Positions 1,010 to 46,814 of a stretch of DNA of 64,000 nt are shown here, piece by piece. Both the position numbers and the translations under genes were made by a program. Numbering within the stretch: the stretch's first letter is position 1; each line of letters opens with the position of its first letter. Origin of the DNA: Chloroflexota bacterium (GTDB lineage Bacteria > Chloroflexota > UBA11872 > VXNJ01); NCBI GenBank assembly GCA_965261345.1, contig OZ253449.1:1760001-1824000 (forward strand), written 5' to 3'. The notes under the pieces are model-generated. The model ran no database searches. It was not told the DNA's origin and was given only the letters and a program-made list of their open reading frames with translations.

Positions 1010-2491
1010 TGCCGGTCCCTGGGCGAGGGTTGCGTAAGCGGCTTCGACCGCCGGTTGATGGTCGCCGACGACCAGGCTGACCCGCGTCCCGGAAATTCCG
1101 ATCAAGGCCGCCTTGGGACCGCCCTGCCAGATTGCCTCAGTTGGCGACACCACCTCGAAGCGGCCCTCGCCATACGCGTGATCTAGTCTGTTTTGGCTGA
1201 CGAAATCCAACATGGTGTGGTGGAAATCAGCGGCCGCCCGGGGGTCGGCGAACGCGGTCCGCAGAAGCAGCGCCGAATTTTGCCCGTTGCCAATCAACAC
1301 CAGGTGATCGTCCAACCAACCGATTGGTCCTGGCGTTCGCGAACCGCTGCGATTTGCAAACAAAACGCCGAGCGCGAATTGCCCCAGCGCGCCCTCGCCG
1401 GTTACCTGCCAGCAGGGTATTTCGGGGTCGCCGAAGTCGGCCAGATCGGAATCTGGTGCAATTTCCTGCCAGTCCCCCTGGCCAGTCGCCAGTAGCTGGG
1501 CGATTTGGGCAGTGCTCTGGGGCACCCGTTGGGGTTCGTAAAGGGCGTTGAGTGCTTCAATCCCGCCCCGCCCTAGGACCGCCAGTACGAATTGCGCACC
1601 GGTCTCATACGGGTAGATGAGCACGCTCTGCACGTATTGGCCGGCCCGGTCGAGCGGACCAGGCGGTGGGACCGGCGCGGCGAGCAGATCGGCAAGCTCG
1701 ACGAGTTGGGTAGCTGCCACGAGGCCGAAAACCGAGGCTTCGCCTTCAATGAGGGCCGAAAGTGCAAGTTGCCGATCGAATTGGAGCAACGGGATGGAGT
1801 TGGACAGGGTTGAAATGTCGAAATTGGATTGCTGCAGCGCGTGCACATACTCATGGGTGATGGTCAATAGGATCTGGGCCTCACGCGCCGGATCGGCAGA
1901 CTCAACGAGGTAGAGACGATCATCATCGGAAACATAAAACCCAAGGAGTTGCGCCGGAACCTGCTCGAGATAGACGTCGTCGAGCGATCGGCCGGGGGCC
2001 AGCACCCCCAGTGCCTGAAGGACCTGGTCGCGACTGACGACCTCGCCGGGGTCCTGCTCGGAAAGGTACGAGTTCACCAACTCGGTCGCCTCCTCCACCG
2101 TCACCACTAACGGCACCGGAGGGTTGCGTGAAAGTCCGCGCACGCTCTCGGCGGCCGCAACCGCAAGCAGGTAATTTCCAGACACCATCTGTTCGAAGTC
2201 ACTCGGCTCGGGTTCGCCCACGGCAGGGATGACCGTCGGCGTGGGTTCGGCGCCTCCCAGGACGGCCGTAGCGGTTGGCGCGTCCTCCAGCCGGTTCCCT
2301 GCCGGACCGGGTTCGGCCTCCTCAGGGATGACCGTCGGCGTCGGACCGACTTTGGTCGGCGCGGCAGCTGTCGCAATTGACGGCGGCGATTGCCCGGCAT
2401 CTTGGCAGCCGGCCAGCAGCAGCATCAGGAGGAGTGCCAGGCAGGCTGTCAATCGCGATAAGCACGGGGCCCGAACTGCAATCGGGGCGAT
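968..2491 (-). CDS. lipoprotein with a Pro/Thr-rich linker and a zincin-like HExxH metallopeptidase-like domain
   Basis: Lipobox LLAGC, PTPT linkers, and GFY...HEYVHALQ...ALIEGEA...YPYETG motifs. The start is placed at ATC 2491 after SD GGAGGTGA; the ORF track uses TTG 2452. Confidence 0.75.
   Translation of the reverse strand: MAPIAVRAPCLSRLTACLALLLMLLLAGCQDAGQSPPSIATAAAPTKVGPTPTVIPEEAEPGPAGNRLEDAPTATAVLGGAEPTPTVIPAVGEPEPSDFEQMVSGNYLLAVAAAESVRGLSRNPPVPLVVTVEEATELVNSYLSEQDPGEVVSRDQVLQALGVLAPGRSLDDVYLEQVPAQLLGFYVSDDDRLYLVESADPAREAQILLTITHEYVHALQQSNFDISTLSNSIPLLQFDRQLALSALIEGEASVFGLVAATQLVELADLLAAPVPPPGPLDRAGQYVQSVLIYPYETGAQFVLAVLGRGGIEALNALYEPQRVPQSTAQIAQLLATGQGDWQEIAPDSDLADFGDPEIPCWQVTGEGALGQFALGVLFANRSGSRTPGPIGWLDDHLVLIGNGQNSALLLRTAFADPRAAADFHHTMLDFVSQNRLDHAYGEGRFEVVSPTEAIWQGGPKAALIGISGTRVSLVVGDHQPAVEAAYATLAQGPASGLNAAQFCPATS
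2224..2341. repeat. 19-bp direct repeat CAGGGATGACCGTCGGCGT (2224-2242 and 2323-2341), an intragenic duplication encoding TPTVIP
   Basis: Exact copies 99 bp (33 codons) apart in the lipoprotein linker. Confidence 0.85.
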
Positions 2492-2611
2492 GACTCACCT
2501 CCAAGCCGGGCAGCGCGATAGCGGGAAATTATCGTAGGTGAGGCGGGCCGGTTTCCGGGGTTGGAAACCGGCGGTAACCTGGTTGAAATGCAAGCTGAAG
2601 CGCAGGTTTAG

Positions 2612-3313
2612 ATGACGTTCATGGATGCCTTTTCACGATCACATTCGCCCGATGGGGATCAGGCGGCCGACCTGGCGGGAGTGCGTGACCAATTGCTGCG
2701 GGCCGGGTTTGATGACCTGGTGCCGTCCGCGCTGCTGGACGCGCCGGCCGGCCTTGCCTATCGCCCGCAGGCCTGCGCCGCCCTCAACTGCCTGCTAAGC
2801 GCGCAGCGTATCGCCAATGCCCTCCAAAACGGGACCGACCGTGAAAAAACTCAGGCCGACGCGCTGGCTTTGTTAGTCCTTCTCGACCGCGCCCTCGATG
2901 CGGCCGGCCACTGGGTCGCGCTGGCAACCGAGCGATCGCAGCGGCGAGGAGCCTCTACTCTGGGGGACCCAAAGTTGACGGCTCGCCTCAGCCTGCTCGA
3001 CGCCGAAGCGGGGCGGACGGTGTCGCGATCCACGGAATGGATTTCGCAGGTCCGGTCAACCACCCGCGCCGCCCTGGAGGGCCGGCCGCCAACTTTCGGC
3101 TATGCGGGCGATCGGCTACAAATACGCCCCAGCCCGCCGTCTGGCCCGGGCGTCCGGTCGGTCAAAGCTGCGCTTGCATCGGTGCCGATCGGCCAGCTCG
3201 CCGGGCAGTGGACCGATCGGCTGGCGCAGGTACTGGCGGCAGTTCTCCGTTGCGGGGCGGAGCGGGTCGCCAGTCCACGTGGCCGCGCGGAGCTGGAATT
3301 TGACTGGGACTGA
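2612..3313 (+). CDS. hypothetical helical protein, possibly a degenerate HEPN-like fold
   Basis: 233-aa ATG ORF filling the gap before rplS; no clear family motif. Confidence 0.6.
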
Positions 3314-3410
3314 AAGCCCCGCCGTCTCCAAATCATTTAAAATTTTCACTAGCCGCTTACAGTACGCCGCAGACCTCTACCCGCCTCTACTACCCGCCTT
3401 AGCTATTGCC

Positions 3411-3764
3411 ATGCCTTCGATCATTGCCGACTTAGACCGAGAGCTGCTGCGTGCCGATATTCCGGATTTCGGGGTGGGCGACACGGTTCGCGTGCACAGC
3501 CTCGTCCGCGAAGGGCAACGCGAGCGCATCCAAGCCTTCGAGGGCGTGGTGATCAAGCGCCGCGGTGGCGGCCTCCAGGAGACGTTTACGGTTCGCCGAA
3601 TCTCCCATGCGGGAATAGGCGTCGAACGCTGTTTTCACCTGCATTCCCCGGTCATTGACCACCTCGATGTGGTGCGCCGTGGCCGGGTGCGACGGGCGAA
3701 ACTCTACTACTTGCGCGAACGCAAGGGCCGTGCCGCGCGGGTCCGCGAAGCTACTCGCCGCTGA
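3411..3764 (+). CDS. rplS: 50S ribosomal protein L19
   Basis: [59 protein letters not shown]; ATG at 3411. Confidence 0.98.
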
Positions 3765-3820
3765 TTGAAGATCTCCCAATTCAATTGAAAATTTGCCGGT
3801 AGCCGCGCGGGGCTAGTCGT

Positions 3821-4513
3821 TTGCCCCAGCCCACCGACGGGTGGATCGAATTGTCCGCTTCCCTGGCACCGCCGAACTTTGAGCGCCAATTGCTGGCCCG
3901 GGGAATCTCGCTCATTGCCGGGATCGATGAAGTCGGCCGCGGCGCCCTGGCCGGTCCGGTCTGTGCCGGCGCGGTGCTGTTAAACGCCCCGACCATCCTC
4001 AGCCGCTCGAAATTTTCCGGGGTAAGGGATTCCAAGCTCGTTCCGCGCCACCGCCGCGGCCCGCTTAGCCGCAACATTTGGAACCGGGCGGTTGCGGTTT
4101 CGCTGGGCTGGGTGGAGGCCCGCGAAATAGACGAGATCGGGATTGCCGCGGCCGTCCGCCGGGCAATGATCCTGGCGCTCGCCCAGCTGCGCCCCAGGCC
4201 ACAGGCGCTAATTACCGATGCCGTCGCGCTACGCGGTCCGGCGGTACCCGAATTGTTCTTTAGCTTCCCCAAGGCCGATCGCGACACGCTGAGCGTGGGG
4301 GCCGCCTCGATCTGCGCCAAGGTCGCCCGCGACGCGCATATGCAGCGCCTGGAATCCATGTTCCCGGACTACGGCTTTGGGCAGAATGTCGGCTATGGCA
4401 CCAGCGACCACCTGGCCGCAATCGCCGCCTACGGTCCCAGCCGGGCGCATCGTCTCTCCTTCGGCCCCTGTCGACCAAGGCTCACTGATCTCTCCGTTGC
4501 CGGTCCCAACTAG
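3821..4513 (+). CDS. rnhB: ribonuclease HII
   Basis: AGIDEVGRGALAGPV, DSK, AASICAKVARD, YGF..NVGYGT..H, HRLSF; the rplS-rnhB order is common. Confidence 0.95.
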   Translation: MPQPTDGWIELSASLAPPNFERQLLARGISLIAGIDEVGRGALAGPVCAGAVLLNAPTILSRSKFSGVRDSKLVPRHRRGPLSRNIWNRAVAVSLGWVEAREIDEIGIAAAVRRAMILALAQLRPRPQALITDAVALRGPAVPELFFSFPKADRDTLSVGAASICAKVARDAHMQRLESMFPDYGFGQNVGYGTSDHLAAIAAYGPSRAHRLSFGPCRPRLTDLSVAGPN

Positions 4514-4528
4514 ATTGCGGCCGGCCGT

Positions 4529-5125
4529 ATGGAACTGATCGCAGAGCTATCCGGCTGGGTTCTCTCGTGGGGCGAATCGCCGTTGAGTTGGGTGGCGCTG
4601 TTTCTGGTCTCATTCTGGGATTCCAGTTTCTTACCGGTTCCGCCCGACGCGCTGATGATCGTCCTGATCCTTGCCGATCCCAGGCTTGCGCTGCCGATCG
4701 CCGCCCTGGCTTCGATCGGATCATTGCTCGGTGCCGCGCTCGGCTACTGGATCGGGCTCAGGGGCGGCCGACCGCTGATTCACCGCCTAATCAACGAGCA
4801 GCGGCTTCGCTACGTGGAAATGAAATATCAGGAAAACGATATTTTGGCGATCATGCTTGCATGTTTTACCCCGTTACCGTACAAGGTTTTTGCGGTCGGG
4901 GCCGGTGTCTGCCAGATCAATTTCCGCCGCTTCATGCTGGTTTCGGCGGTAGGCCGGTCGACGCGATTTCTGGCGGTGGGACTGGCGTTGTTTTTTTTCG
5001 GCGACCAGATCCGCGAGCTGCTGGAAGACTACTCGGCGCCAATCGCGCTCGCCTTCCTGGTGATTTTTGCACTCGGGGTGTTCCTGATGCGTTGGATCTC
5101 CAACCGCGCCACCACGGCGGTTTAG
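4529..5125 (+). CDS. YqaA/DedA (VTT) family membrane protein
   Basis: SFWDSSFLPVPPDAL, GSLLGAALGYWIG, FTPLPYKVF, GRSTRF. Confidence 0.88.
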   Translation: MELIAELSGWVLSWGESPLSWVALFLVSFWDSSFLPVPPDALMIVLILADPRLALPIAALASIGSLLGAALGYWIGLRGGRPLIHRLINEQRLRYVEMKYQENDILAIMLACFTPLPYKVFAVGAGVCQINFRRFMLVSAVGRSTRFLAVGLALFFFGDQIRELLEDYSAPIALAFLVIFALGVFLMRWISNRATTAV

Positions 5126-5146
5126 CGGGAACCGGCCCGCCCGTAC

Positions 5147-6226
5147 TTAGAGCATCGGTAGCGGTTCGACCCGTTCGAGGTTCTTAACCGAGATCGCGGC
5201 CGCCAATTTGGAGCTTATCTGGCGGTAGGTGTCGACTAATCCATTGACGCCGAAGCGGGCAACCGGCCGCCCGTCGTCACCGCCCTGGCGAATTGTCGGG
5301 TCGAGCGGGAGTTCACCGAAGAAGGGGATCTCCATCAGCTCGGCGGCGCGCCGGGCTCCGCCGTGACCGAAGATCTCGATCCGCGAGCCATCGATTGGAT
5401 TTTGGAAGTACGACATGTTCTCGATCAGTCCAAGAATGTCGACGCTGAGGCGCTCGAACATTGCAATCGCCCGCCGCACGTCCTGCAAGGCCACTTCCTG
5501 GGGGGTCGAGACGATGACCGCTCCGGTCAGTGGAATCAGCTGCGCGAGCGAGAGCGAAGCATCGCCGGTACCTGGCGGAAGGTCGACTATCAGGTAATCG
5601 AGATCACCCCAGTCAACGTCGCCAATGAGCTGCTTGAGCGCCCCGGCGATCATTGGACCTCGCCAAATCACCGGGGTGTCGGGTTCGAGCATGAATCCCA
5701 ACGACATCAACTTGACGCCGAAGGATTCGATCGCCTGAATCTTGCCGCCGATCGCGGTCGGCGAAGCGTTAGCGCCCATCATCAATGGAATATTGGGGCC
5801 GTAGACGTCGGCGTCGAGCAATCCGACCGTGGCCCCCTGGTCGCGCAGGGCTACTGCCAGGTTGACCGCGGTGGTGCTTTTCCCGACTCCACCCTTACCC
5901 GATGCCACCGCCACCGCATTTTTGACGCCCGGCAAGGTGGAGGACGGCGTGGTGGAGCGCGATCCGACCTCGGCGGTCATCTCGATGTTGGCTCCGGCAA
6001 CCCAGCCCAAGCTGGCCAAGCCGGCCCGGACGCGGCTGTCAATCTCACCGCGCAGGGGGCAGGCCGGGGTGGTCAGGACCACCGTCAGCGACACGTCGTC
6101 GCCGGTCACCTTCACGTCACGAACCATGTTCAAGGTGACCAGATCTTTGTGGATTTCAGGGTCGTAGACGCCGCGCATGGCGTCGATGACCTGATCGACC
6201 CGTGATTGGTTGTCAGCGGCGGGCAT
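5147..6226 (-). CDS. mrp: Mrp/NBP35 (ApbC) Fe-S carrier ATPase with an N-terminal DUF59/MIP18 domain
   Basis: DPEIHKDLV..LTTPACP, VASGKGGVGKST, DADVYGP, WRGPM, DLPPGTGD; ATG at 6226. Confidence 0.93.
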   Translation of the reverse strand: MPAADNQSRVDQVIDAMRGVYDPEIHKDLVTLNMVRDVKVTGDDVSLTVVLTTPACPLRGEIDSRVRAGLASLGWVAGANIEMTAEVGSRSTTPSSTLPGVKNAVAVASGKGGVGKSTTAVNLAVALRDQGATVGLLDADVYGPNIPLMMGANASPTAIGGKIQAIESFGVKLMSLGFMLEPDTPVIWRGPMIAGALKQLIGDVDWGDLDYLIVDLPPGTGDASLSLAQLIPLTGAVIVSTPQEVALQDVRRAIAMFERLSVDILGLIENMSYFQNPIDGSRIEIFGHGGARRAAELMEIPFFGELPLDPTIRQGGDDGRPVARFGVNGLVDTYRQISSKLAAAISVKNLERVEPLPML

Positions 6227-6311
6227 GATTGTCAGCTCAGAATTTACAAGGTTTAGAAGAGGATATTCGATTTTATTGGGATGCCCGATAGCGGCGGGAT
6301 CGGATCGGGCG

Positions 6312-7094
6312 TTAGCCAATCGCCGCCGGAGGGGCGGAAAAAACCTGGCGAACCGTGCCGCTGGCGAATTCCGTCCGCCGGCCGTCAATTTCAAGCGCGA
6401 TTTTCCCTGCGGCCGTCAATTGGCATACGGTGCCGGTATACGAACGGCCGCCGGCCGCCAGTTGGATCCTTCGACCCAGGAGCGTGGATCGCTCGACCCA
6501 CTGATGATGCTGGTCGGCGGCCCCGGCGGGCAGCTCGGTCAGCAATTGGCCGAGCCGGCGGATCAACCGGGCACAGACATCGACGCGGTCGACCGGCCGG
6601 CCGAGCTGGTCGGCGGCCGAGGCGGCCGGGTAGGTCATTCCGGTCAGCCTGGCGGGGTCATTGTTGAGATTGGCGCCGATCCCGATCGCATGGCCGTCGC
6701 CGGCGCCTTCGATTAGGACGCCGCCGGCCTTGGCTCCCGCCAACATCACATCGTTGGGCCATTTAATACCCACTTCCCGGCAACCGACCGTCTCTAACGC
6801 CTGGCACAGGGCCAGACATCCGCAGCGGGCCAGGTCGGCCGCCGTGGCGCCGCTAAAGTGACCGGCGTAGGTCAGGGCGAGAGCCTGTCCGGGCGGCGTC
6901 TTCCAGGAAGCCCCGCGCCGTCCGCGTCCAGCTGACTGCGAGTCGGCAACTATTGCCAATTGACCTGAAAAGCCCTCGCGCAGACGCCCGAGCGCGACCT
7001 GGTTGGTCGAATCGACCCGCGACCTGTACACAATTTCGACTGGCAGATCGGCCAGTTGGCGGCCAAGCCGGCCGAAATCGAAGGCGCTGTCCAA
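6312..7094 (-). CDS. birA: biotin--[acetyl-CoA-carboxylase] ligase, no HTH domain
   Basis: DSTN, QSAGRGRRG..W, KWPNDV, KAGGVLIE, GIGAN. Confidence 0.92.
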   Translation of the reverse strand: MDSAFDFGRLGRQLADLPVEIVYRSRVDSTNQVALGRLREGFSGQLAIVADSQSAGRGRRGASWKTPPGQALALTYAGHFSGATAADLARCGCLALCQALETVGCREVGIKWPNDVMLAGAKAGGVLIEGAGDGHAIGIGANLNNDPARLTGMTYPAASAADQLGRPVDRVDVCARLIRRLGQLLTELPAGAADQHHQWVERSTLLGRRIQLAAGGRSYTGTVCQLTAAGKIALEIDGRRTEFASGTVRQVFSAPPAAIG

Positions 7095-7118
7095 AAGCCT
7101 GCGGCCGACCCGCCGCGG

Positions 7119-7805: not shown

Positions 7806-7827
7806 TTTTGCTCCAATTGGTGCTTAA

Positions 7828-8712: not shown

Positions 8713-8714
8713 AT

Positions 8715-10121
8715 TTAAGCGGGAACTGAGCTGGAATTGACTTTTTCGGCCAGCGCTTCGGCTGGTTCAACCATGATTTCGGCCAGGGTGGGATGCAGGT
8801 GCGGGATGCGGGCAAAGTCGCCGACGGTCGCCCGGTAGTGCATCGCCACCACGGCCTCGTGGATCAGGTCGGGACCTTCGGGGCCCAGCACATGAACACC
8901 GAGGAGCTCACCGGTTCGGCCGTCGGCCACCATTTTGACCAGGCCCTTGTTCTGCCCCATGGTAAGGGCCTTGCCCTGGTCCTCGAACGATTCGGTTGCC
9001 ACGATGACCGATTCATAGCGCGCCCGCGCGGCCTTTTCGGTTAGTCCGACGGTGCCGACCGCCGGGTCGGTAAAAACCGCCTGCGGAACCACCCGCAGAT
9101 CAAACTGCTGCGGCGGCTTGCCGGCCACGTTGTCGCCGATGATCTGGCCCTGTTGGACTGCGGTGTGGACAACCTGCAGCGGTCCGACTTCGCGGCCGAT
9201 GCAATCGCCGGCGGCGTAAACGTTGGGGTTCGAGGTCTGCATGAAGGTGTTTACCAGGATCCAGCCGCGTTCGGTTTCCACCCCGGCCCGTTCCAGCCCC
9301 AGGCCGGCGATTGCGGGGCGCCGTCCCAGCGCCACCAGGATCTCGCTGGCCGAAAATCGCGCCGGACCGGCGCCGGTTTCGAGCTCGACCTGCTTGGCGC
9401 CGTCGGGCGAACGCGAAAACCGCGTGATACGAGTGCCGGTAACTATCCGTATGCCCTCGCGTTTCAGGTAAACGGCCAGTTGCCGGCCGATCGCCTCGTC
9501 TAGGCCCGAAAGCACGTGGTCGGAGCGCTGGACCACGGTGACCGCGACCCCCAGCCGCGAAAACAACTGGGCAAATTCAAGCGCCACCGCCCCGCCGCCG
9601 ATCACCAGCAGCGAGTCTGGCAGGGCATCGAGGGTCTGGGCCTGGTCGGAATCGATATAGCCGACCGCGGCCAGGCCCGGCAGCAGCGGAGTAGCGATCT
9701 CGGAACCGGTCGTTACCGCGAAGTAGTCGGCGCTAAGGACCCGGCCGTCGACCTGGATCGAACGCCGGTCGAGAAACGAACCCCGGCCCTTGATCATCTC
9801 CACGTTGGCCAGGTTTTCGGCCGAGACCTGGCGGTAGCTGGCAAACTCTTGCACCAGCGCGTCCTTGCGGGCCCTGACCGCCGGCCAGTCAATCGCCGGG
9901 GCCGAGCTGTTGATTCCCAATGAGGCCGCTTCACGCACCAGCTGGGCGATTTCGGCCGATCGCAGCAGGGTCTTGGTCGGCATGCAGCCACGCAGGATGC
10001 AAAGTCCGCCGAATCGGTCGGCGGCCTCGACTAGGGCGACTCGCAAACCGTTGGCGGACGCCGTGCTGGCCGCGTGATATCCCGCCGATCCGCCGCCAAT
10101 TACGATGAAGTCGTAATGCAG
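8715..10121 (-). CDS. class I pyridine nucleotide-disulfide oxidoreductase (dihydrolipoyl dehydrogenase family)
   Basis: GGLCILRGCMPTK redox disulfide, IGGGAVALE, AAGD, HPTLAE. The FAD motif YDFIVIGGGSAG lies in frame upstream of TTG 10046, so the start is placed at CTG (10121; 10145 or 10154 also possible). Confidence 0.88.
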   Translation of the reverse strand: MHYDFIVIGGGSAGYHAASTASANGLRVALVEAADRFGGLCILRGCMPTKTLLRSAEIAQLVREAASLGINSSAPAIDWPAVRARKDALVQEFASYRQVSAENLANVEMIKGRGSFLDRRSIQVDGRVLSADYFAVTTGSEIATPLLPGLAAVGYIDSDQAQTLDALPDSLLVIGGGAVALEFAQLFSRLGVAVTVVQRSDHVLSGLDEAIGRQLAVYLKREGIRIVTGTRITRFSRSPDGAKQVELETGAGPARFSASEILVALGRRPAIAGLGLERAGVETERGWILVNTFMQTSNPNVYAAGDCIGREVGPLQVVHTAVQQGQIIGDNVAGKPPQQFDLRVVPQAVFTDPAVGTVGLTEKAARARYESVIVATESFEDQGKALTMGQNKGLVKMVADGRTGELLGVHVLGPEGPDLIHEAVVAMHYRATVGDFARIPHLHPTLAEIMVEPAEALAEKVNSSSVPA

Positions 10122-18855: not shown

Positions 18856-19593
18856 ATCTCATACTTTGACCCGCCCGGCGTTTACGACCAGGCGGTCTTT
18901 CCCGCCGCCGGCCCCCAGCGACCATTCGTGGCCGCCAATTTTGTGATTTCCGCCGACGGATCTGCGCGCAAGCCGGGACCGGCCTATCGGCATTTCTCAG
19001 GCCCCGTCGACCGCCGTTCTTTCCGCCGCCTGCGAATCCACTTTGATGCCATCCTGCGGGGGGCCCGGACGCTGGAGATCAACCCGATTCGGGATCTTGC
19101 CAATCCGGCGATTCGTCGGGCGCTGGACGAACGCGGCCGGCGGATGCCGGTGGTCGTAGCGGTTAGCAATTCCGGCCAGATTCCAGATGAGGCCGGGCTG
19201 ATCCGCGGCGCCGACCCGCAGTTGCCGCCAATCTTGTGCGTACCCGAGAATGCCAAGGTTTCAGCAACGGTTGCCCGGGCCTGCCGGGTATGGCGCTTTT
19301 CCGGGCCCCGCCTGGACCTTGCCCGGGTGCTTGAACGCCTCGGACGCCAATGCGGAGTGCAACGAGTTCTCTGCGAGGGTGGACCGACGCTCCTGCGTGG
19401 GCTGCTCGATCAGGGCCTGCTCGACGAATTGCTGCTCACGATTGCGCCCTGCCTGCTGGGCGACCCGGACAAACTGACGCTGTTGGGTGGGCAGCTCCCG
19501 TTCACACCGACGACGGTGCCCGACCTGGAGCTGATCGCAGTGCGGTCCGAGGCCGACGAAGTCTTTTTGCGTTACCGGGTCCGCGCCGGTTGA
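18856..19593 (+). CDS. stand-alone RibD C-terminal (pyrimidine reductase/DHFR-like) protein
   Basis: RPFVAANFVISADG, DAILRGART, LCEGGPTL..LLDELLLTIAP, EVFLRYR. The start is placed at ATC 18856 after GGTGATC; the ORF track uses GTG 18928. Confidence 0.8.
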   Translation: MSYFDPPGVYDQAVFPAAGPQRPFVAANFVISADGSARKPGPAYRHFSGPVDRRSFRRLRIHFDAILRGARTLEINPIRDLANPAIRRALDERGRRMPVVVAVSNSGQIPDEAGLIRGADPQLPPILCVPENAKVSATVARACRVWRFSGPRLDLARVLERLGRQCGVQRVLCEGGPTLLRGLLDQGLLDELLLTIAPCLLGDPDKLTLLGGQLPFTPTTVPDLELIAVRSEADEVFLRYRVRAG

Positions 19594-20456: not shown

Positions 20457-20780
20457 TTGACAGAACTTTCGACAGTGCCGGATCATAACCCGTCAGCCGT
20501 TCGACTGGCTGCAAGCGACAACGTCGCCACCCTGGTGAGGCCGGCCAAAGCCGGCGAAACGGTGGCGGTGATCGATGCGCGCGCGCACCGCGTCGTGGCC
20601 CGCGAGGACATTCCGTTCGGTTTCAAGATCGCAATTTCACCGATCGGGACCGGCGAAATGGTGGTCAAGTACGGGTCTCCAATCGGGCAGGCCACCCGAC
20701 CGATCGATGCCGGCCAGCTGGTGCATGTCCACAATCTGGCCGGCCTCCGGGCCGGCGGCGACCATCGGCGGCCGGCCTGA
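20457..20780 (+). CDS. UxaA-family SAF-domain subunit
   Basis: DNVAT, IPFGFKIA, VVKYG.PIG.A..I.AG..VHVHN. An alternative GTG start lies at 20475. Confidence 0.88.
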   Translation: MTELSTVPDHNPSAVRLAASDNVATLVRPAKAGETVAVIDARAHRVVAREDIPFGFKIAISPIGTGEMVVKYGSPIGQATRPIDAGQLVHVHNLAGLRAGGDHRRPA

Positions 20781-21958
20781 GCGCCGAGTTTGCCGGGTTC
20801 GCCCGCCCCGATGGATCAGTGGGAACCCGCAATCACGTGCTGATCCTGCCCGGTGGTTGGGAGTGCCAGCAGATCGTGAACATGGTTGAGGGCACGGTAA
20901 CTCCCAACTCGCCCGATCTTGGCATCGGCCGGATCCGACCTGACCGCGAGACCATTACTCGGATGCAGACCGGTCTGGCGCTCAACCCCAACGTCTACGG
21001 GGTGATCGTGGTGGCTGGCCTGGGTGGCATAAATGATGAACTTCTAAACGGCCAACTGGCCGCTGACGTCTGCCGCGAGGCCGGAAAACCGTTTGAGATC
21101 GTAGAACACGACGGGTGGCAGGCAATTGCCCACGGCGGCCAGTTGGCCGCCCGAATGGTCCATGCCGCATCTGCCCTGCAGCGGATCACGGTTCCGGCCA
21201 GCGCTCTCACCGTGGGGGTCAAGTGCGGCGGCTCGGACCCGACCTCGGGCCTCGCCGGAAATCCCGCCGTGGGTCGGATGTTCGACCGCGTGGTGGAGGC
21301 GGGTGGCACCGCCTTGTTCTCCGAAACGACCGAGCTGATCGGCGCCGAGCACGAACTGGCCAAGCGCTGCGTTTCCGAGGCCGTGCGGACCGAGTTGCTT
21401 GACCTGATCTCCGCCCACGAACAAATGGGGCGCTCGGTCGGGCAGGACATCCGCTCCATTAATCCGGGGCCGGCCAACATCGAGGCGGGGATAAGCACGC
21501 TTGAAGAGAAAAGCTTGGGGGCGATTCACAAGGCTGGCAGCGCTCCCCTACAGGGTGTCCTTGACTGGGCTCAACGCCCCGCCGGGAAGGGCCTGTACTT
21601 CATGCACAGCTCAGCCAGCAGTTACAAAGTCGTCCTTCCCGGCATGGCCGGGGCCGGCTGCAACTTGGTCTTTTTCCAGTTTGGCGGCGGCGGATCGCGG
21701 CGGCGGACCCTTACCGGCGGTGAGGGCATTGTGGCGCCGCAGGTCTGGGTGACCGGCAACCCGCGCACCGCTCAAAATATTCCCGATGGAATTGACTTTT
21801 CGGCCGGCGGGGCGATCATCGCCGGCCGAAAAGTCGCTGAGCTGGGCGATGAATTGTTCGAGCTGGTGCTCTCAATCGCCTCCGGGCAGCTGGCGCGGAC
21901 TGAAATGCTCCGCTTTTTCGATCCGGTGCAATATCACCTCCCCGGCCCCAACTTTTAA
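20777..21958 (+). CDS. UxaA-family hydrolase/dehydratase large subunit (altronate dehydratase/SuyB-like)
   Basis: F.GF.RPDGSVGTRNHV, NPNVYG, KCGGSDPTSGLAGNPAVG, SETTELIGAEH, NPGPANIEAGISTLEEKSLGA..K.G. The start is placed at CTG 20777 (CTGA overlap). Confidence 0.88.
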   Translation: MSAEFAGFARPDGSVGTRNHVLILPGGWECQQIVNMVEGTVTPNSPDLGIGRIRPDRETITRMQTGLALNPNVYGVIVVAGLGGINDELLNGQLAADVCREAGKPFEIVEHDGWQAIAHGGQLAARMVHAASALQRITVPASALTVGVKCGGSDPTSGLAGNPAVGRMFDRVVEAGGTALFSETTELIGAEHELAKRCVSEAVRTELLDLISAHEQMGRSVGQDIRSINPGPANIEAGISTLEEKSLGAIHKAGSAPLQGVLDWAQRPAGKGLYFMHSSASSYKVVLPGMAGAGCNLVFFQFGGGGSRRRTLTGGEGIVAPQVWVTGNPRTAQNIPDGIDFSAGGAIIAGRKVAELGDELFELVLSIASGQLARTEMLRFFDPVQYHLPGPNF

Positions 21959-23891: not shown

Positions 23892-24161
23892 CTAGGCGAC
23901 GATCGCAAAGCCTGAGTATTCGCGTGGGTGCAGGTCGACCGAGCCAACCTGCGCGACCAGGGCCAGGGTCGGGCCCTGCCGGGCCCGACGTTCGAGCCGG
24001 TCAAGGTCGCAATCGCGCCCACAGGCCGTGATTTCGACCGTCCCGTCGGGCAGGTTCCGTACGAATCCGCTCAGCCCCAGGGCGCGTGCACGAGTCTGGA
24101 TAAACTGGCGATAACCGACCTGTTGGACCCGCCCCGAAACTACGAATTTTCGAGTTGTCAA
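23892..24161 (-). CDS. acyP: acylphosphatase
   Basis: VSGRVQQVGYR, GFVRNLPDGTVE, QGP..A.V; start at TTG 24161. Confidence 0.9.
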   Translation of the reverse strand: MTTRKFVVSGRVQQVGYRQFIQTRARALGLSGFVRNLPDGTVEITACGRDCDLDRLERRARQGPTLALVAQVGSVDLHPREYSGFAIVA

Positions 24162-29478: not shown

Positions 29479-30676
29479 AGTCCTCCCGGTCGGTGGCCGC
29501 GTAGGCGGTCAATTGAATCTGTTCGGCCCGGGCAACCGCGTCCCGGCAGTTCTCGGGGTCGGAATATATCACCACCACTTTGTGGCCCGATCGTTGCATT
29601 CTTTTCAGCATCGGCAGGTGGTCGGTGCGGCCGCCGGAGAAGAGCACGATGGTGGAGCCAAAGGTCAGTCTTGATATCTGCGCCCGCACCTGTTCGGCAA
29701 GGTCTCCGCGGGGCAGCATTGCCGATCGCGCCAGGACCTCGAGGACGAGCATGAGATGGCGTCGCCCCTGGCCGACCGGCGTCCCGGGATTGGCCAATTT
29801 GCGGCTGCGCATGGCGCGTTGGGCCTGCGGCCGCGAGAGCAGTTCGTTGCGATCTAGGCCGTTGACGATTAGGCCGACCGATTGGCGTTGCCCGATCAGG
29901 GCGTTGGCAAATGAAGCCGCGCCGGTGATTGAAAGCTCGCTGGCGTACTGCGCCCAGCTGGCCGAGTAGTCGTTCGGATTCAGGTCAACCACCAGCAACA
30001 CCTCGTGGCGGACGGCCGGTTGCAGTTGGCGCACCAGCAGCTGCCCGCGCGCCGCTGAGGCCTTCCAGTTGATCAGCCGCGGACTGTCACTGGAGGTGTA
30101 TTCGCGAACTCCGGCCACCCGCGTCGGATCCTCATAGAGCCGGATTGGAGAGCGCTGGGTACCCAGCGGCGAGGACGATGGCAATGCCAGCTCGGAAATT
30201 GGGATGATCCGCGGAAATACGTATTTGCGCTGTCCGGCCCTGACCTGACGCTGCTGGCGGTAGATGCCGAACACATCGCCGAAGGCAATGTCGAGTGGTC
30301 CCAGCAGATAGACGCCGCGCTGGCCGGCGGTGAGCTCGTAGGTGTAGGTTCGTTTGGATCGCGGCGGGAGGGCGATTGCGATGTTGAGCGGGTCGCGATG
30401 GCCCAGCTCGATCGGCAGCTGCTCCTGCAGATTCATCCAGGGAATCGGCACCCAGTTGCGGTTTTCGACCATCAGCTCGACGGTGGATTTTTCGCCCAGA
30501 AACGAGCGCTTTTGAAAAGTACGGGTCACCCCGATGCCGGCGCCGGCCAGTCGGATCCAGAGCAGATTGGCCGCGTACAACCCGATGAACAGATAGGCGA
30601 GCAGGAAGAACGCCGAGAGCCGCGAGGCCAGCGCCACCACCACCAAGGCGAGCGCCACCGTCGCGGCGGCGGCCAT
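29441..30676 (-). CDS. DUF58 domain protein (MoxR partner)
   Basis: RG.Y.LGP....GD.FG, V.PRI, GVREY...DS.R.INWKASAARGQL.VR. Confidence 0.9.
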   Translation of the reverse strand: MAAAATVALALVVVALASRLSAFFLLAYLFIGLYAANLLWIRLAGAGIGVTRTFQKRSFLGEKSTVELMVENRNWVPIPWMNLQEQLPIELGHRDPLNIAIALPPRSKRTYTYELTAGQRGVYLLGPLDIAFGDVFGIYRQQRQVRAGQRKYVFPRIIPISELALPSSSPLGTQRSPIRLYEDPTRVAGVREYTSSDSPRLINWKASAARGQLLVRQLQPAVRHEVLLVVDLNPNDYSASWAQYASELSITGAASFANALIGQRQSVGLIVNGLDRNELLSRPQAQRAMRSRKLANPGTPVGQGRRHLMLVLEVLARSAMLPRGDLAEQVRAQISRLTFGSTIVLFSGGRTDHLPMLKRMQRSGHKVVVIYSDPENCRDAVARAEQIQLTAYAATDREDYANWGRRLRPAS

Positions 30677-31635
30677 TATTCGGCGGCCATTGGCGCCAGA
30701 TCCACCGGTGCTGAGCCAAGCACCTGTTCGACCACATGACTGGCGGTCGTTCCGCGCACTATCGAATCGGGTTGCAGCAGAAGGCGGTGGGTGAGGATGT
30801 AGGGCGCGACCGCCTTCACATCGTCGGGGGCTACGAAGGATTCGCCGGCCAGAGCGGCTTGCGCCTGGCTGGCCTGGAATAGTGCCAGCGCCGCTCGAGT
30901 GCTGGCGCCGATCGCGACGGCGGGATGGTTGCGCAGCCGGGTTACCAGTTCGACGATGTAGACGGCCACCGATTGCTCGACATGGACCTCTCCGACCTGT
31001 CCCTGAAGAGCTAGTAGCTGATCGATTTCGGCCACTGGCGCCAGCGATTCGATCGGATGGCCTTGGCGTTGCCCGTAGAGGATTTCCACCTCTTCGGACT
31101 GGCTTGGATAGCCCAGGGCGGTGCGCATGAAGAATCGGTCGAGCTGCGCCTCGGGCAGCGGAAACGTGCCCTCGTATTCAACCGGATTCTGGGTCGCCAG
31201 CACCATGAACGGGTCGGGCAGGCGGCGGGTCTCCCCTTCGATCGAGATCTGGCCCTCGCCCATGCACTCGAGCATTGCCGCCTGGGTTCGGGGGGTGGCG
31301 CGGTTGACCTCGTCGGCCAACAGGATGTTGGTGAACACCGGTCCCGGACGGTAGTCGAAGCGCAGGCTGGCCGAATCAAAAACCGCCACGCCGGTTATGT
31401 CGTTGGGCAAAAGGTCGGGGGTAAATTGAATCCTTCTGAAGTCGCCGCCAAGGGATATCGCCAGCGCCCTGGCGAACATCGTCTTGCCGGTTCCGGGTAC
31501 GTCCTCTAGCAGTACGTGCCCGCGGCAGAGGAGCGCGATAAGTACTCTTTCAATCTCAGCCCTCTTGCCGATGATTACCTTGGCAACGTTGTCGCTAACA
31601 AGCTGCGTGAATTGCTGAAAATCTTGCGGATTCAA
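30676..31635 (-). CDS. MoxR family AAA+ ATPase
   Basis: [60 protein letters not shown]. Confidence 0.96.
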   Translation of the reverse strand: MNPQDFQQFTQLVSDNVAKVIIGKRAEIERVLIALLCRGHVLLEDVPGTGKTMFARALAISLGGDFRRIQFTPDLLPNDITGVAVFDSASLRFDYRPGPVFTNILLADEVNRATPRTQAAMLECMGEGQISIEGETRRLPDPFMVLATQNPVEYEGTFPLPEAQLDRFFMRTALGYPSQSEEVEILYGQRQGHPIESLAPVAEIDQLLALQGQVGEVHVEQSVAVYIVELVTRLRNHPAVAIGASTRAALALFQASQAQAALAGESFVAPDDVKAVAPYILTHRLLLQPDSIVRGTTASHVVEQVLGSAPVDLAPMAAE

Positions 31636-36405: not shown

Positions 36406-36951
36406 CTAGTTGTTCCTCCGCGCCATTGCGCCACGGCTGGGGCCCGGCACCAATATCACCGCGAACGAACCATTGCTCTCAGCCGCGATCGGGTTTTCAA
36501 CGTGCCCGACATCGTCGAGTTTGGTAACCACCTTGTTTAACAATTCGGCCGCCAGCTCGGGGTATACACGTTCACGGCCGCGCATCCGCACAGTGGCCTT
36601 AACCTTGGCGCCAGCGCTTAGAAACTTGGACATGCGCCGCAATTTGGTGTCGATGTCCTGGTCTGAGGTCACCGGTCGAAAGCGAACTTCCTTCACGTCG
36701 CCGGACCGCTGGTTCTTGCGGTTGCTTCGATCTTTCCGCTCTTGCCGATAACGGTACTTGCCGTAATCGAGAAATTTAGCGACCGGCGGCGAGGCATTGG
36801 GCGCCACCTCCACCAGGTCAAGCCCTTTCTGGCGGGCCAACGATAAAGCGTTGATGGTTGGCATCACGCCTAATTTCTGGTTTTGGTCATCAATTAATAG
36901 GACTTCGCGGTGCATGATGCTGTCGTTTATGCGAAGTTCCTTCGAACTCAT
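36406..36951 (-). CDS. infC: translation initiation factor IF-3 (divergent)
   Basis: RIN..I, LDLVEVAPNASPPV, DYGKY.Y, KEVRFRP, K..RGRE; AGGAG upstream of an ATG start. Confidence 0.95.
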   Translation of the reverse strand: MSSKELRINDSIMHREVLLIDDQNQKLGVMPTINALSLARQKGLDLVEVAPNASPPVAKFLDYGKYRYRQERKDRSNRKNQRSGDVKEVRFRPVTSDQDIDTKLRRMSKFLSAGAKVKATVRMRGRERVYPELAAELLNKVVTKLDDVGHVENPIAAESNGSFAVILVPGPSRGAMARRNN

Positions 36952-37139
36952 GCTCGTGGGGTGCTCCTAATTCCTTAAACCTTCCGCGGCCAAGGGCCGT
37001 CATTGAATATCCCATATTGGCGAAAATACCAGACGATTGCCAGTGGACCGAACAAAAATAGAGATCGACGCTCGATCGAAAACTTAAAGTCACGCAACTG
37101 GGCAGCGCGTTTATTGGACCAAATGTCGATTTACGCATT

Positions 37140-43266: not shown

Positions 43267-45078
43267 CTAGCTGGATCGCGCCAGTGCCTCGGTCATTTCG
43301 GCATCGGCCAGCTCAAATCCGATCTCATACATCCGGCGGTAGTGGCCATGCTGGGCCAGCAGTTGCTCGTGCGTCCCGCGTTCGATTATTTGGCCCGCAT
43401 CGACGACCAGGATCTGATCGGCGTTCTGGATGGTCGAGAGGCGGTGGGCGATGACGATCGAGGTTCGTCCCTCGATCAACTTGGCCAGGGCCGATTGCAC
43501 CAGTACTTCGGTTTTGGTGTCGACCGAGGATGTGGCTTCGTCGAGCACCAAGATGCACGGGTCGATTAGCAGCGCTCGCGCAAACGAGAGCAGTTGTCGC
43601 TGGCCCACCGAAAGCTGGCTGCCGCGTTCGTTTACATAAGTGTCATAACCATAATCCATGGCCAAGATCGACTCGTGCAGGTTGGCGGTCTTGGCCGCAG
43701 CGATTACTTCCTCGCGCGAGGCTCCGGGCCGTCCGTAGGCGATGTTCTGGTGGATGGTGCCCCTAAACAGGAACGGGTCCTGCAGTACCAGGCCCATCTG
43801 CGAGCGCAGGGACCGCTGGGTGACTGTGCGCACATCGTATCCGTCAACTCGAATCGATCCCGAGGAGATGTCGTAAAACCGGTAGAGCAGGTTGACCATG
43901 GTGGTCTTGCCCGCCCCGGTGGCACCGACCAAGGCGAATGTCTGTCCCGGCTCGATCGCAAACGAGACCTTGTGGAGAACCGGTTGATCGGGCAGGTAGG
44001 AAAAATCCACCTGGTCGAAATCAACCCGACCGGATATGGCCGGCAGTTCAATCGCATCGCTGCGGTCCTTGACCAATTCCTCGGTTTCAATGATGCCGAA
44101 TATGCGTTCGGCCGAGGCCATCGCCGCCTGGAGTAGGTCAAAACGCACGCCGATCTCCTGGATTGGGCCGAAAAGCCGCTGCACATAAAGCAGGAACGTT
44201 ACGACCACCCCCAACTGCAGGGCACCTTCACCAAGCACCAGCGAGCCGCCGTAAACCAGCACCGCGGCAATTGCGACGGCCGCCAGAATATCGGTTACCG
44301 GGATGATGGTTACCCCGATCAATCGCGCTTTTCGGTGGGCGTCCAGTGTCTTCTGGGTAACCAGACCGAAAAGGCGTTCGTTCTCGCGCTCGCGGGTAAA
44401 GGATTTGGTGGTGCGGATACCCAGTATGCTCTCGGCCAGATTGGCGTTGGTTTCCGAGAGCAGGGCCCGGACCCAGCGATAGGCGCGCGCCGCATGAATC
44501 CGGAACAGCGCACCGAAAATGGCCAGCAACGGCATGACCGCAAACGCTACCAGCGCCAGCTGCCACGACAGGCTGAGCATGATGATAAATACGCCGCACA
44601 CCGTGATCAGGTCCACGACCGTCCAGACCAGCCCTTCGGTCATGACCTCGTTGAGGGTGTAGACGTCGCCCAGAAAGCGCGAGAGGATGGACCCGGAATT
44701 GGTGCGGTCAAAGAATCCCAGCGAGAGTCGTTGAATCTTGTTAAACATCTCCATCCGGATCTGGTACATCATCGACTGGCCGATGTTGCCGGTCGTCCAG
44801 ACCATTAATCCGGCCGCGACCGAGGCCGCGGTCGCCAGGAATAAATAGGCCAGCGACATTTGCCCGAGCAGGACGACATCACTGGCGGCGATGCCGCGGT
44901 CGATCGCCACCCCAACCACAATCGGCTGAATCATATTGGCAACCGTAATGACCGCCCCGAGCGTGCCAGCCAGCATCACGCGCCGCGGTCTGGCGAGGGT
45001 ATAGGCGAACATTCGGCGAAAGAGCCCGGCATTAAACGGTGCTCGCGCCCGCTCGATATCGTGCCGGTAGTGGATCAC
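43267..45078 (-). CDS. ABC exporter subunit (TMD+NBD) with canonical Walker B and H-switch
   Basis: GATGAGKT, LSVGQRQ, LDEATS, IAHR. Confidence 0.93.
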   Translation of the reverse strand: MIHYRHDIERARAPFNAGLFRRMFAYTLARPRRVMLAGTLGAVITVANMIQPIVVGVAIDRGIAASDVVLLGQMSLAYLFLATAASVAAGLMVWTTGNIGQSMMYQIRMEMFNKIQRLSLGFFDRTNSGSILSRFLGDVYTLNEVMTEGLVWTVVDLITVCGVFIIMLSLSWQLALVAFAVMPLLAIFGALFRIHAARAYRWVRALLSETNANLAESILGIRTTKSFTRERENERLFGLVTQKTLDAHRKARLIGVTIIPVTDILAAVAIAAVLVYGGSLVLGEGALQLGVVVTFLLYVQRLFGPIQEIGVRFDLLQAAMASAERIFGIIETEELVKDRSDAIELPAISGRVDFDQVDFSYLPDQPVLHKVSFAIEPGQTFALVGATGAGKTTMVNLLYRFYDISSGSIRVDGYDVRTVTQRSLRSQMGLVLQDPFLFRGTIHQNIAYGRPGASREEVIAAAKTANLHESILAMDYGYDTYVNERGSQLSVGQRQLLSFARALLIDPCILVLDEATSSVDTKTEVLVQSALAKLIEGRTSIVIAHRLSTIQNADQILVVDAGQIIERGTHEQLLAQHGHYRRMYEIGFELADAEMTEALARSS

Positions 45079-46814
45079 CGGCGGATCGGTTGGGCGATCG
45101 CCTGCAGGCGAAAGATCTCGGCGTAGAGCCGATCGAGTTCCAGCAGCTCCGCATGGGTGCCGCGCTCGGTGATCTGTCCGTCCTCCAGCACCAGGATCTC
45201 GTCGGCGGCGCGCACCGAAGACACTCGCTGCGACACGATCAGCGAGGTCCGTCCCGCCAGCTGACGGTCGATGCTCATCTGGATCAGGCGTTCGGTCTCG
45301 GTGTCAACCGACGAGGTTGAATCGTCCATCGCCAGGATCGGCGCGTCCATCACCAGCGCCCGGGCGATTGTTACCCGTTGCCGCTGCCCGCCCGAAAGTC
45401 CCACCCCGCGTTCCCCGACGACAGTTTCGTAGGTTTCGGGCAGGGTGTCGATGAACCGTGAGGCTTGGGCCTGGCTGGCGGCCGACCGCACCGACTGCGG
45501 GTCGAGGTCGGGTCGCGCAAAGGCGATGTTTTTGCTTACGGTGTTGGTGAAAAGATAGGGGTCCTGGGCCACTGAAGAAATGTGCCAGCGCAATTCTTTG
45601 GCGTCGAAATCGGAAATCGGTCGCTGCCCGACTAGGATCTGACCGCGTTGTGGCTGGTAGTGGGCCTGCAGGAGATTGAGCAGGGTGGTCTTGCCGGATG
45701 CGGTCGGGCCGATAATGCCGATCGTGCCGCCGGCGCGCACGTTGAACGAGACTCCCTTAATGATCCAGTCGGACCCCGGCGAATAGCGGAACCAGACGTC
45801 ATCGAAGGCGACTGCGAGACCCTCGCGCGGGCGGTCTGGCGGCGGCGACTCCTCGACCACAGGCGGGCTGCGGTCAATGATTTCAAATATTCGTTCGGCG
45901 GCCACTATTCCGTTGATCATCCGCTGCACGAACGCTCCCAGCATCCGGGTGGGCTGGATAAGCGCCCCCATGTAGATGTTGAATGAGATCACGTCGCCGA
46001 TGCTGGCCTCGCCAGCGCCAACCAGTGAAAATCCATACCAGATCAGGACCACGGTTCCGATCGAGGACATAAAGAAAAGCACCGGCAGAAAGATCGCGAA
46101 ATAGCGAATCGTGCCGAGGATCTTTTGCACCAGGACTTCAACTTCGCCCTCGAACCGCTCAATCTCGCGGTCCTCCTGGGCGAAGGACTTAACAACCCGG
46201 ATGCCATTTAGGGATTCGGTCAGCACGTCGGTAAGGATCGAACGCTGGCGCATCACCGCCTGCCACTGGTAGCGGAATCGGCGCCCGAAATACAAGGTCC
46301 AGGCAATCATCAGTGGCAGCATGACCAGGGTTGCCAGGGCCAGTTTGAAGTTGATCGTAAGCATCAACGCGGCAAAGAAGGCGTACTTGCCCACCGATTC
46401 CGAGACCAGCAAAAAGCTCATCGCACCACCCTGGCTGGCAGATTGCACATCCGAGATGCCGCGTGTGATCAGGTCGCCCGAATTGTTGCGATCAAAGTAG
46501 CTGAAAGGCATCCGGTTGAGCGCCGCGAAATAGGCATTGCGCACGTCACGCGCAACCAATTGCGCGCCGTAGTGATTGGAGAATCCAAAAACGGCGGCAA
46601 ACAGTCCACGCAGCACCCACAGCCCTCCCGCCAGCACGGCGAACCGAACTAGGGCGGCGGTATCGTTGGACGCAATCCCTGAATCAATCGCCTCGGCGAT
46701 TGCCCGCGGAGCAAACCCTTCGGCGACGATCGATAGCGCCAGCGCGACCGCCGCCACCGCCCAGATCAATTGATGCTGACGGGCGAGCCGCAGCAGGCGC
46801 AGGGTTGCTTTCAG
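45075..46814 (-). CDS. ABC exporter subunit (TMD+NBD) with degenerate Walker B and switch; heterodimer partner
   Basis: GPTASGKT, LSGGQRQ, MDDSTS (E to D), VSQR (H to Q). The start is placed at CTG 46814 after AAGGA; the ORF track uses TTG 46769. Confidence 0.92.
   Translation of the reverse strand: MKATLRLLRLARQHQLIWAVAAVALALSIVAEGFAPRAIAEAIDSGIASNDTAALVRFAVLAGGLWVLRGLFAAVFGFSNHYGAQLVARDVRNAYFAALNRMPFSYFDRNNSGDLITRGISDVQSASQGGAMSFLLVSESVGKYAFFAALMLTINFKLALATLVMLPLMIAWTLYFGRRFRYQWQAVMRQRSILTDVLTESLNGIRVVKSFAQEDREIERFEGEVEVLVQKILGTIRYFAIFLPVLFFMSSIGTVVLIWYGFSLVGAGEASIGDVISFNIYMGALIQPTRMLGAFVQRMINGIVAAERIFEIIDRSPPVVEESPPPDRPREGLAVAFDDVWFRYSPGSDWIIKGVSFNVRAGGTIGIIGPTASGKTTLLNLLQAHYQPQRGQILVGQRPISDFDAKELRWHISSVAQDPYLFTNTVSKNIAFARPDLDPQSVRSAASQAQASRFIDTLPETYETVVGERGVGLSGGQRQRVTIARALVMDAPILAMDDSTSSVDTETERLIQMSIDRQLAGRTSLIVSQRVSSVRAADEILVLEDGQITERGTHAELLELDRLYAEIFRLQAIAQPIRR

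Follow-up and report, generated by a model that had tools for sequence, protein, structure and literature searches.

In a window of 64,000 nucleotides (nt) from an uncultured Chloroflexota bacterium (contig OZ253449.1, positions 1760001-1824000), we find five genes that appear to be translated from CTG or ATC codons in place of ATG, GTG or TTG. We propose that these five, and about 2% of the genes of the whole genome, would be translated from such near-cognate starts, with CTG the commonest, followed by ATT and ATC and then by ACG and ATA, and that the usual initiator tRNA(CAU) presumably decodes them. The trait would be inherited across the family, in two genera, with some sites conserved and others recently switched to or from ATG, GTG or TTG, and would be accompanied by heavy use of TTG (19% of confident starts) and weak use of Shine-Dalgarno (SD) motifs; the initiation machinery of the lineage would, we infer, tolerate near-cognate codons better than that of Escherichia coli. 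The most specific candidate cause is the N-terminal domain of initiation factor IF3, where R25 and R20 are lost and G31 and Q33 changed on the face turned to the initiator-tRNA elbow. The case for this causal step is weaker in the genus of this genome, with its L25/K33, than in the sister genera, whose position 25 is H, L or M and position 33 S or A. We give this explanation as a whole a probability of about 0.6. That the near-cognate starts are real seems very probable from the comparisons below, and that their rate lies well above that of ordinary bacteria seems probable; IF3 as the cause is a tentative proposal.

The genome that holds the window (G000) is a single contig of 2.39 Mb with 61-66% G+C, on which 1982 genes were called crudely from codon usage. 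Orthologues were compared as stop-to-stop translations, G000 against G002, a complete genome of the same genus, and G000 against 680 kb of G011, a genome of another genus of the same family. Throughout, ATG, GTG and TTG are called canonical, and codons such as CTG, ATC, ATT, ATA and ACG near-cognate. A preliminary description of the window had proposed ATC or CTG starts for five of about 60 genes. When the codons were listed strand by strand from the upstream in-frame stop, all five sites fell at the coordinates it had given, and the starts and conservation of the orthologues bear the proposal out: in all five genes no usable ATG, GTG or TTG lies upstream of the conserved N-terminal sequence, and a CTG or ATC stands at the orthologues' start.

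The gene for a pyridine nucleotide-disulfide oxidoreductase (8715..10121, minus strand) is by itself a decisive case for a near-cognate start. Its CTG (10121-10119) follows an SD-like GAGGAG (10136-10131), and the first canonical codon is a TTG at 10046. Profile position 1 of the Pyr_redox_2 model falls two residues past the CTG and 23 residues before that TTG, and the FAD-binding motif GGGSAG (GxGxxG) is encoded upstream of it. The arrangement GGAG-N9-CTG is kept in 6/6 genomes of the genus despite differing residues in between, and at the same place six loci from other genera of the family carry ATG (five) or TTG (one).

The other four genes differ in the kind of evidence they offer. The large subunit of a split galactarate/altronate-dehydratase-like enzyme (20777..21958, plus strand) has a CTG at 20777-20779 that overlaps, as CTGA, the TGA (20778-20780) of the SAF-domain gene 20457-20780; in G002 the same column holds an ATG that likewise overlaps the stop (ATGA), and the GD_AH_second model starts 8 residues before the first GTG (20819). 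In a predicted lipoprotein gene (968..2491, minus strand; lipobox LAGC), the proposed ATC (2491-2489) stands in TGA-GTC-ATC, one codon after an in-frame TGA, behind the 8-mer SD GGAGGTGA at 2502-2495, with 6 nt separating GGAGG from the ATC. Such an 8-mer precedes 0.01% of the internal near-cognate codons of G000 (n=16,942); the first canonical codon of this gene is a TTG at 2452, and in the G002 orthologue an ATG stands 9 codons before the column of that TTG. The RibD_C-domain reductase gene (18856..19593, plus strand) would start at an ATC (18856-18858) two codons past an in-frame TGA (18847-18849), with its first canonical codon, a GTG, at 18928. Over 23 codons its extension is 70% identical to that of G002, the differences are distributed 6/4/12 over codon positions 1/2/3, a coding-type pattern, and the G002 gene has an ATG 3 codons before the aligned block. 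Finally, an ABC exporter gene (ABC_membrane and ABC_tran domains; 45075..46814, minus strand) has its CTG at 46814-46812, an in-frame TAA at 46829-46827 and its first canonical TTG at 46769. G000, G002 and G011 all have CTG in this column, the stops standing 4, 1 and 14 codons before it respectively, and the N-terminal block (A-L-K...LRLL) is conserved with G011.

Sequencing runs X1-X6 were used as DNA contigs. Two of them, X5 and X6, from another study, hold a strain about 99% identical to that of the window, in which 1 nt is inserted after the SD and before the ATC of the lipoprotein gene. The same strain lacks 3 nt at 2423 and shows two non-synonymous changes within the proposed N-terminal extension (2423-2491), and among the matches listed no substitution was seen at 2489-2491.

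Two further genes of the window, both on the minus strand, show related features. Gene 13127-14527 starts at TTG in G000; its orthologue in G002 carries an Ile codon there, and neither the 25 codons before it nor the 12 after it include a canonical one, so that a further ATH start is likely in G002. For 34692-35747, the alignment with G002 (82% identity) begins 24 codons before the first canonical TTG (35633), in an Arg-rich stretch; this may reflect one more near-cognate start, the sixth of the window, or else conservation in another reading frame.

A similar picture could come from ATG codons misread in sequencing or assembly, from pseudogenes or from an altered genetic code, given that CTG, ACG, ATT and ATC each differ from ATG by one base and that the genomes are metagenome-assembled. 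An independently assembled contig of 69 kb from run X1, which may itself be the source sample, agrees with the window over positions 2400-21000 with 0 differing letters; this identity over 18.6 kb, together with the recurrence of the same codons in independent genomes, argues that the window sites are not assembly errors. Artefacts would also have to explain why 6 of the 18 start switches described below pair with GTG or TTG, why AAG and AGG never appear among them and why CTG, a transversion from ATG, is the commonest. The ends of the 1982 called genes use all three stops (TGA 769, TAG 702, TAA 511), and the 48 tRNAs of G000 include none with a stop-codon anticodon and no extra initiator, so that an altered code or stop reassignment was set aside. 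An artefactual origin is thus barely credible.

The pattern extends beyond the window. In 1492 good G000-G002 pairs the alignment starts at least 8 codons before the first canonical codon in 197 G000 genes, a raw figure whose extensions show differences of 1012/714/906 at codon positions 1/2/3. After positions belonging to other genes were masked, 114 of the 1492 were left, with differences of 839/727/1335 compared with 9104/6639/19173 in gene bodies, and a mixture model puts the number of coding extensions at about 61. Manual reading of 50 cases with a positive log-likelihood ratio found 18 convincing and 12 plausible; the remainder comprised pieces of longer genes, mobile elements, RNA genes and ordinary ATG starts behind conserved leaders. 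Two false candidates lie at minus-strand offset 1558226 and plus-strand offset 1587947 of G000. The conserved 'extension' of one holds the tRNA T-arm sequence GGTTCAAATCC, and is therefore an upstream RNA gene and not a coding extension; the other is an IS3-type orfB, which normally has no start of its own and is made by frameshifting.

Conserved N-termini beyond the first canonical codon, a check that the preliminary description had suggested, were looked for with domain models: a Pfam or NCBIfam model starts upstream of that codon in 12/16 curated candidates of G000, and with the oxidoreductase and the dehydratase subunit of the window 14 of the 21 proteins tested are verified in this way. 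In UvrA the CTG coincides with profile position 1, and the first canonical codon lies 114 codons in; in PanC an ATT stands at residue 1, and the domain model again begins before the first canonical codon. The models start 15 residues before it in ValS, 10 in CysS, 42 in a CNNM protein, 12 in an ABC ATPase, 9 in an SBD_N kinase, 11 and 12 in two GMC oxidoreductases, 12 in a Glycos_trans_3N protein, 21 in GltD and 34 in Zwf.

A second line of evidence comes from start switches, in which a confident canonical start in one genome (G000 or G002, both directions) is followed to the codon in the same column of the other. Among 910 reference starts, 18 partners were non-canonical and had no canonical codon within 6 codons downstream (6 in G000 and 12 in G002): CTG 7, ATT 3, ACG 3, ATC 2, and CGA, GCA and GCC 1 each. 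The near-cognate share, 15/18, compares with 0.373 at codons aligned to internal ATG, GTG or TTG (P=8.6e-5), and with 33/114 for partners that do have a canonical codon nearby. With AAG and AGG absent and a transversion leading, these codons are a poor fit to mutational decay of start codons. The comparison of orthologous start codons that the preliminary description had called for favours the near-cognate starts it proposed.

These lineage-specific cases amount to 2.0% of the reference starts over both genomes (18/910), to which can be added some dozen sites that the two genomes share (uvrA, the oxidoreductase and exporter genes of the window, cysS and others). We estimate that near-cognate starts serve about 2% of G000 genes, within a range from about 0.7% (domain-verified) to 4% (mixture estimate). 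The density that had drawn attention to the window is a local high: five in about 60 exceeds the genome estimate, as would be expected of a window flagged for looking dense.

Conservation carries the trait into a second genus. The GGAG-N9-CTG of uvrA is kept in 2/2 genomes, and gltD has ACG at the Met position in 3/3 genomes of two genera (G000, G002, G011), reading TGA-tct-aca-ACG-ggt-aaa in G011, for (M)GKASGFLE. In 281 reciprocal-best G000-G011 pairs, the alignment begins at least 8 codons before the first canonical codon in 26 genes of G000 and 28 of G011 (raw, symmetric counts). Sites particular to G011 include AcnX, whose profile position 1 is an ATC while ATG serves in G000 and G002, GatA, with ATC where they start at GTG or ATG, and NuoG, with a start upstream of Fer2_4; TopA is ambiguous. 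On these alignments near-cognate start use is heritable, genome-wide and present in a second genus.

Translation might instead enter these genes from an upstream open reading frame, through restart or coupling, frameshift junctions or split genes. The CTGA of the dehydratase subunit, the TGAtCTG of the UDG gene and the overlap of gltD with the end of its upstream gene are of the kind expected from coupling, and raw candidates #18, #34, #37, #46 and #48 are indeed fragments of longer G002 genes, with one IS3-type orfB besides. Against this, 8 of 19 curated sites, including the window genes for the lipoprotein, the oxidoreductase, the reductase and the exporter, come first after a divergent intergenic region; at 6 an upstream stop is no more than 20 nt away, and at 5 the distance is greater. 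Canonical starts fall into the same classes as 121, 134 and 180 of 435, so the share within 20 nt is alike (6/19 against 134/435), and translational coupling was rejected as a general cause. In-frame stops also stand 1-7 codons upstream of several sites, and the codons in the start column are specifically near-cognate. We hold this explanation to be very improbable.

The heavy use of TTG noted in the window holds for the genome: the 435 confident canonical starts of G000 comprise 293 ATG, 59 GTG and 83 TTG (19%), infA and rpsI both start at TTG, and by manual reading roughly 8-12 genes of the window have TTG at the alignment start. SD use is weak despite a canonical anti-SD, the 16S tail ending in GGATCACCTCCTTT: a motif of at least 4 nt placed 4-11 nt upstream precedes about 18% of the 293 confident ATG starts, compared with a background of 5.8%, and about 82% have none. 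A genome-wide search for starts by way of SD motifs was dropped because SD use is too weak to locate them.

Several results weigh against the proposed explanation, at the level of the starts themselves. The preliminary description had held that each of the five genes has its own support, and this is so for the SD of the lipoprotein gene, the GxGxxG motif of the oxidoreductase and the CTGA of the dehydratase subunit. Domain models add nothing for the other two or for the lipoprotein: the RibD_C profile starts just 2 residues before GTG 18928 and is compatible with a start there, the ABC_membrane model of the exporter begins downstream of its TTG, so that the case for that gene is one of conservation, and the lipoprotein matched no Pfam family. 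Among the 16 curated candidates MurJ, LGT, UDG and a PALP protein likewise did not pass. The raw count of extensions is inflated by out-of-frame conservation in overlapping genes, by non-coding DNA, RNA genes and mobile elements, the per-gene log-likelihood ratio exceeds 2 in just 28 cases, and the split into 18 convincing and 12 plausible is a manual judgement. The codons behind SD motifs, another check that had been suggested, speak for the lipoprotein gene with its 8-mer; an SD motif is present at just 4/18 curated near-cognate sites. An unbiased test of columns near alignment starts found near-cognate codons in 8/19 with 7.6 expected, which is no enrichment; alignment starts are a poor guide to true starts. 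As a control, Rhizobium etli p42e and R. johnstonii pRL11 (200 kb each) gave 75 pairs, 36 reference starts and 0 cases, against 0.7 predicted if the rate were 2%, and this pair has no power as a same-method baseline because of its median amino-acid identity of 90%, broken synteny and few reference starts. Published start-codon rates, for their part, rest on annotation, which rarely considers near-cognates, or on small proteomic sets. That the mature proteins begin at the near-cognate codons is itself a reading of DNA comparison.

The preliminary description had also pointed to an altered IF3 in the window, and this is what we find. The infC gene (36406..36951, minus strand) starts at an ATG 12 nt after AGGAG, and its product aligns without gaps over the N-terminal domain to E. 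coli chain 8jsg_A (query residue i being E. coli i+7), so that L18, K26 and K59 correspond to E. coli R25, Q33 and R66. In E. coli numbering the changes are R25L, Q33K and R66K, with R20M, G31N and C65A in addition. R25 is replaced by L, M or H in 18/18 genomes of the family and kept in 12/12 of the sister family, as well as in 75/75 other loci compared. G31 and Q33 are also lost in 18/18 family genomes and R20 in 17/18, and the sister family keeps R20, R25, G31 and Q33 in 12/12. According to Singh et al. 2022 (PMC9723500), R25, Q33 and R66 of E. coli IF3 contact the initiator-tRNA elbow, R25 being called invariant, and the triple mutant R25A/Q33A/R66A raises initiation at AUU about 5-fold and at AUA 1.5-2-fold.

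A survey of 120 IF3 homologues, 101 of them outside the family, gives these changes a more ambiguous meaning. L25 occurs in 33 of the 101, always with R (25) or K (8) at position 33, 66 bear R25, mostly with Q at 33, and none combines a residue other than R25 with a non-basic residue at 33. Some of the L25 and R25 proteins of the survey (P0020-P0120) carry names that include Roseiflexaceae and Dehalococcoidia. This covariation suggests that the elbow-contacting arginine can move from position 25 to 33, and across other Chloroflexota it amounts to a testable structural prediction on the contact between IF3 and the tRNA elbow. The genus of G000 (g1 in the IF3 comparison) has L25/K33 and K66. Since L25 is elsewhere always paired with R or K33, its L25/K33 may be a compensated swap, and the IF3 of this genus may be functionally normal. 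In the other genera of the family (g2-g5) position 25 is H, L, M or F and position 33 is S or A, a combination unique within the survey. Also unfavourable to a role for IF3 are R66K, common to the family and its sister family, and the conservation in G000 of Y75, R99, D106, R131 and E134, which we take to be the fidelity sites of the C-terminal domain.

The start of infC itself has changed within the family. In G002 and in all 11 genomes of other family genera it is an ATA 4-6 nt after AAGGAG, whereas G000 and 5/6 other genomes of its genus have the ATG 12 nt after AGGAG, with ACG or AAA at the old position (36936-36966, minus strand). The G000 gene has no ATT, ATA or ATC start behind an SD, so that autoregulation through its own start is not indicated there, and the switch to ATG would remove from this subclade the classical, start-codon-based autoregulation of IF3.

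Elsewhere the initiation machinery looks largely ordinary. Of the parts that the preliminary description had advised inspecting, IF1 is ordinary, and the three anticodon-stem G-C pairs of the initiator tRNA(CAU) are intact; the bases of this tRNA from 2 to 75 are 99-100% identical across the family and the sister family, so that its co-evolution was rejected as a cause. Base 1 of this tRNA (G000 1009514-1009588) is T, and 1:72 can therefore pair as U-A, where a C-A mismatch is usual; in BLAST, matches extend over bases 1-75 just in this genus and in two sister-family genomes, and elsewhere run from base 2. IF1 and the S9 tail are ordinary in G000, RsmD is present in 57/57 genomes and KsgA in 30/31.

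Two features of the 16S rRNA and its modification were considered and rejected as causes. The universally conserved 790 loop, which belongs to the surface contacted by IF3 and the 50S subunit, has the sequence GGAUUAGGUACCC in G000 (1008300-1008312). This amounts to A792G in E. coli numbering, and the stem next to it has a compensated A784G/U798C pair. The exact pattern occurs in 7/57 genomes of the order (6/7 of the genus and one of the sister family), and since it is nearly confined to the genus and is not in the genus of G011, which also uses near-cognate starts, A792G cannot account for the trait at the level of the family. A search for RsmB (TIGR00563) found it in 0/31 genomes of both families, and PF01189 (RsmB/RsmF) had no match in G000, while control genomes were matched in 13/14 and 14/14; the order as a whole seems to lack the m5C967 and m5C1407 methyltransferases. 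This absence is not family-specific, and loss of RsmB is described in PMC3643588 as having little effect on most start codons.

The loosened start-codon discrimination suggested for the lineage by the preliminary description is partly supported by heritable starts in two genera, by high TTG use and by a loss of R25 that affects 18/18 family genomes and 0/12 of the sister family; the possible compensation between L25 and K33 tells against IF3 as its cause. A fuller version would have a relaxed start-codon checkpoint throughout the family: its ancestor would have lost IF3 R25 and R20, CTG, ATH and ACG starts would since have accumulated, turning over even in aminoacyl-tRNA synthetase and DNA-repair genes, and one subclade would have been re-tuned (infC from ATA to ATG, A792G, base 1 of the initiator tRNA). 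We regard this version as unlikely; if it were true, the near-cognate genes would be a set with output dependent on the level of IF3.

It has also to be considered that both machinery and rate are ordinary. Near-cognate starts at the percent level would then be common in poorly studied, slow-growing, SD-poor bacteria and missed by gene callers, and those seen here would be gene-specific throttles or drift, with IF3 changes that are neutral or compensated. The Rhizobium control, being powerless, leaves this reading without a same-method rate to contradict it, and it draws further on the covarying class to which L25/K33 belongs (33/33 L25 proteins of other lineages) and on the ordinary or present initiator tRNA, anti-SD, IF1, S9 tail, RsmD and KsgA. 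In E. coli, moreover, initiation at CUG, AUU, AUC and AUA reaches 1-2% of the AUG level (10.1101/063800), which might suffice for low-demand genes. Against an ordinary rate stand the essential single-copy genes affected (valS, cysS, uvrA, panC) and the at least 14 domain-verified genes in a 2.4-Mb genome. The comparable figures are two confirmed exceptions in E. coli, infC and pcnB being the only ones according to 10.1101/063800, and four genes in Deinococcus deserti (dnaA ATC, rpsL CTG, Deide_03051 CTG and infC ATA), which Baudet et al. (PMC2830850) call unwonted. TTG, at 19% of confident starts, likewise contrasts with the annotated starts of model genomes, where ATG accounts for 81.8%, GTG for 13.8% and TTG for 4.35%, 99.95% in sum (10.1101/063800). 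Against an ordinary machinery stands the loss of R25 and R20 in genera g2-g5 with no basic residue at 33, a combination with no counterpart (0/99) in the other IF3s surveyed. On balance we find it doubtful that both are ordinary, and continue to favour a lineage with near-cognate starts at a raised rate.

Parts of this picture have known parallels. The infC and pcnB genes of E. coli (AUU) and the ATA or ATT starts of infC in many bacteria share with it a near-cognate codon behind an SD that would be read by the initiator tRNA, and the family's own infC belongs to that class in G002, G011 and all other genera examined. The E. coli pair are isolated regulatory exceptions, whereas here dozens of genes, housekeeping genes included, would be concerned, CTG is the codon most used and infC of G000 itself starts at ATG. 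Chloroplasts offer a bacterial-type translation system in which certain genes reportedly keep non-AUG starts through evolution, unlike the present case in an organelle with few genes. In D. deserti, essential conserved genes also start at ATC or CTG, kept among relatives and found through conserved N-termini upstream; there four genes are known from N-terminal peptides, while here at least 14 domain-verified genes are known from DNA, together with an IF3 change. The R25A/Q33A/R66A mutants described in PMC9723500 touch the same three positions as the family's IF3. They differ in that the mutants have alanine where the family naturally has L, H or M (position 25), K, S or A (position 33) and K (position 66), that L25/K33 covary elsewhere and that R66K is shared with the sister family, and any effect of the natural residues on initiation is predicted from the sequences. 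A literature search, which supplementary files lay outside, returned no account of lineage-wide near-cognate starts tied to a natural IF3 variant.

Bacteria are taken to have almost no freedom in where a gene may start, and gene callers, like most annotation, expect an ATG, GTG or TTG. If about 2% of genes, with valS, cysS, uvrA and panC among them, do start at near-cognate codons, annotation pipelines would truncate or mis-start these genes in all genomes of the group, and protein families and metabolic calls would be distorted. The lineage would then be a natural counterpart of the laboratory IF3 fidelity mutants, with R25L/Q33K and R25H/Q33S as evolved test sequences for the part that the N-terminal domain of IF3 plays in selecting start codons.

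Two of the window's TTG starts, in genes whose names come from the preliminary description, show the alignment with G002 directly. The acylphosphatase-like gene (23892..24161, minus strand) has its TTG, at 24161, at the alignment start, with ATG in that column of G002, and in the MoxR-like gene (30676..31635, minus strand) the TTG stands one codon past the alignment start in both G000 and G002.

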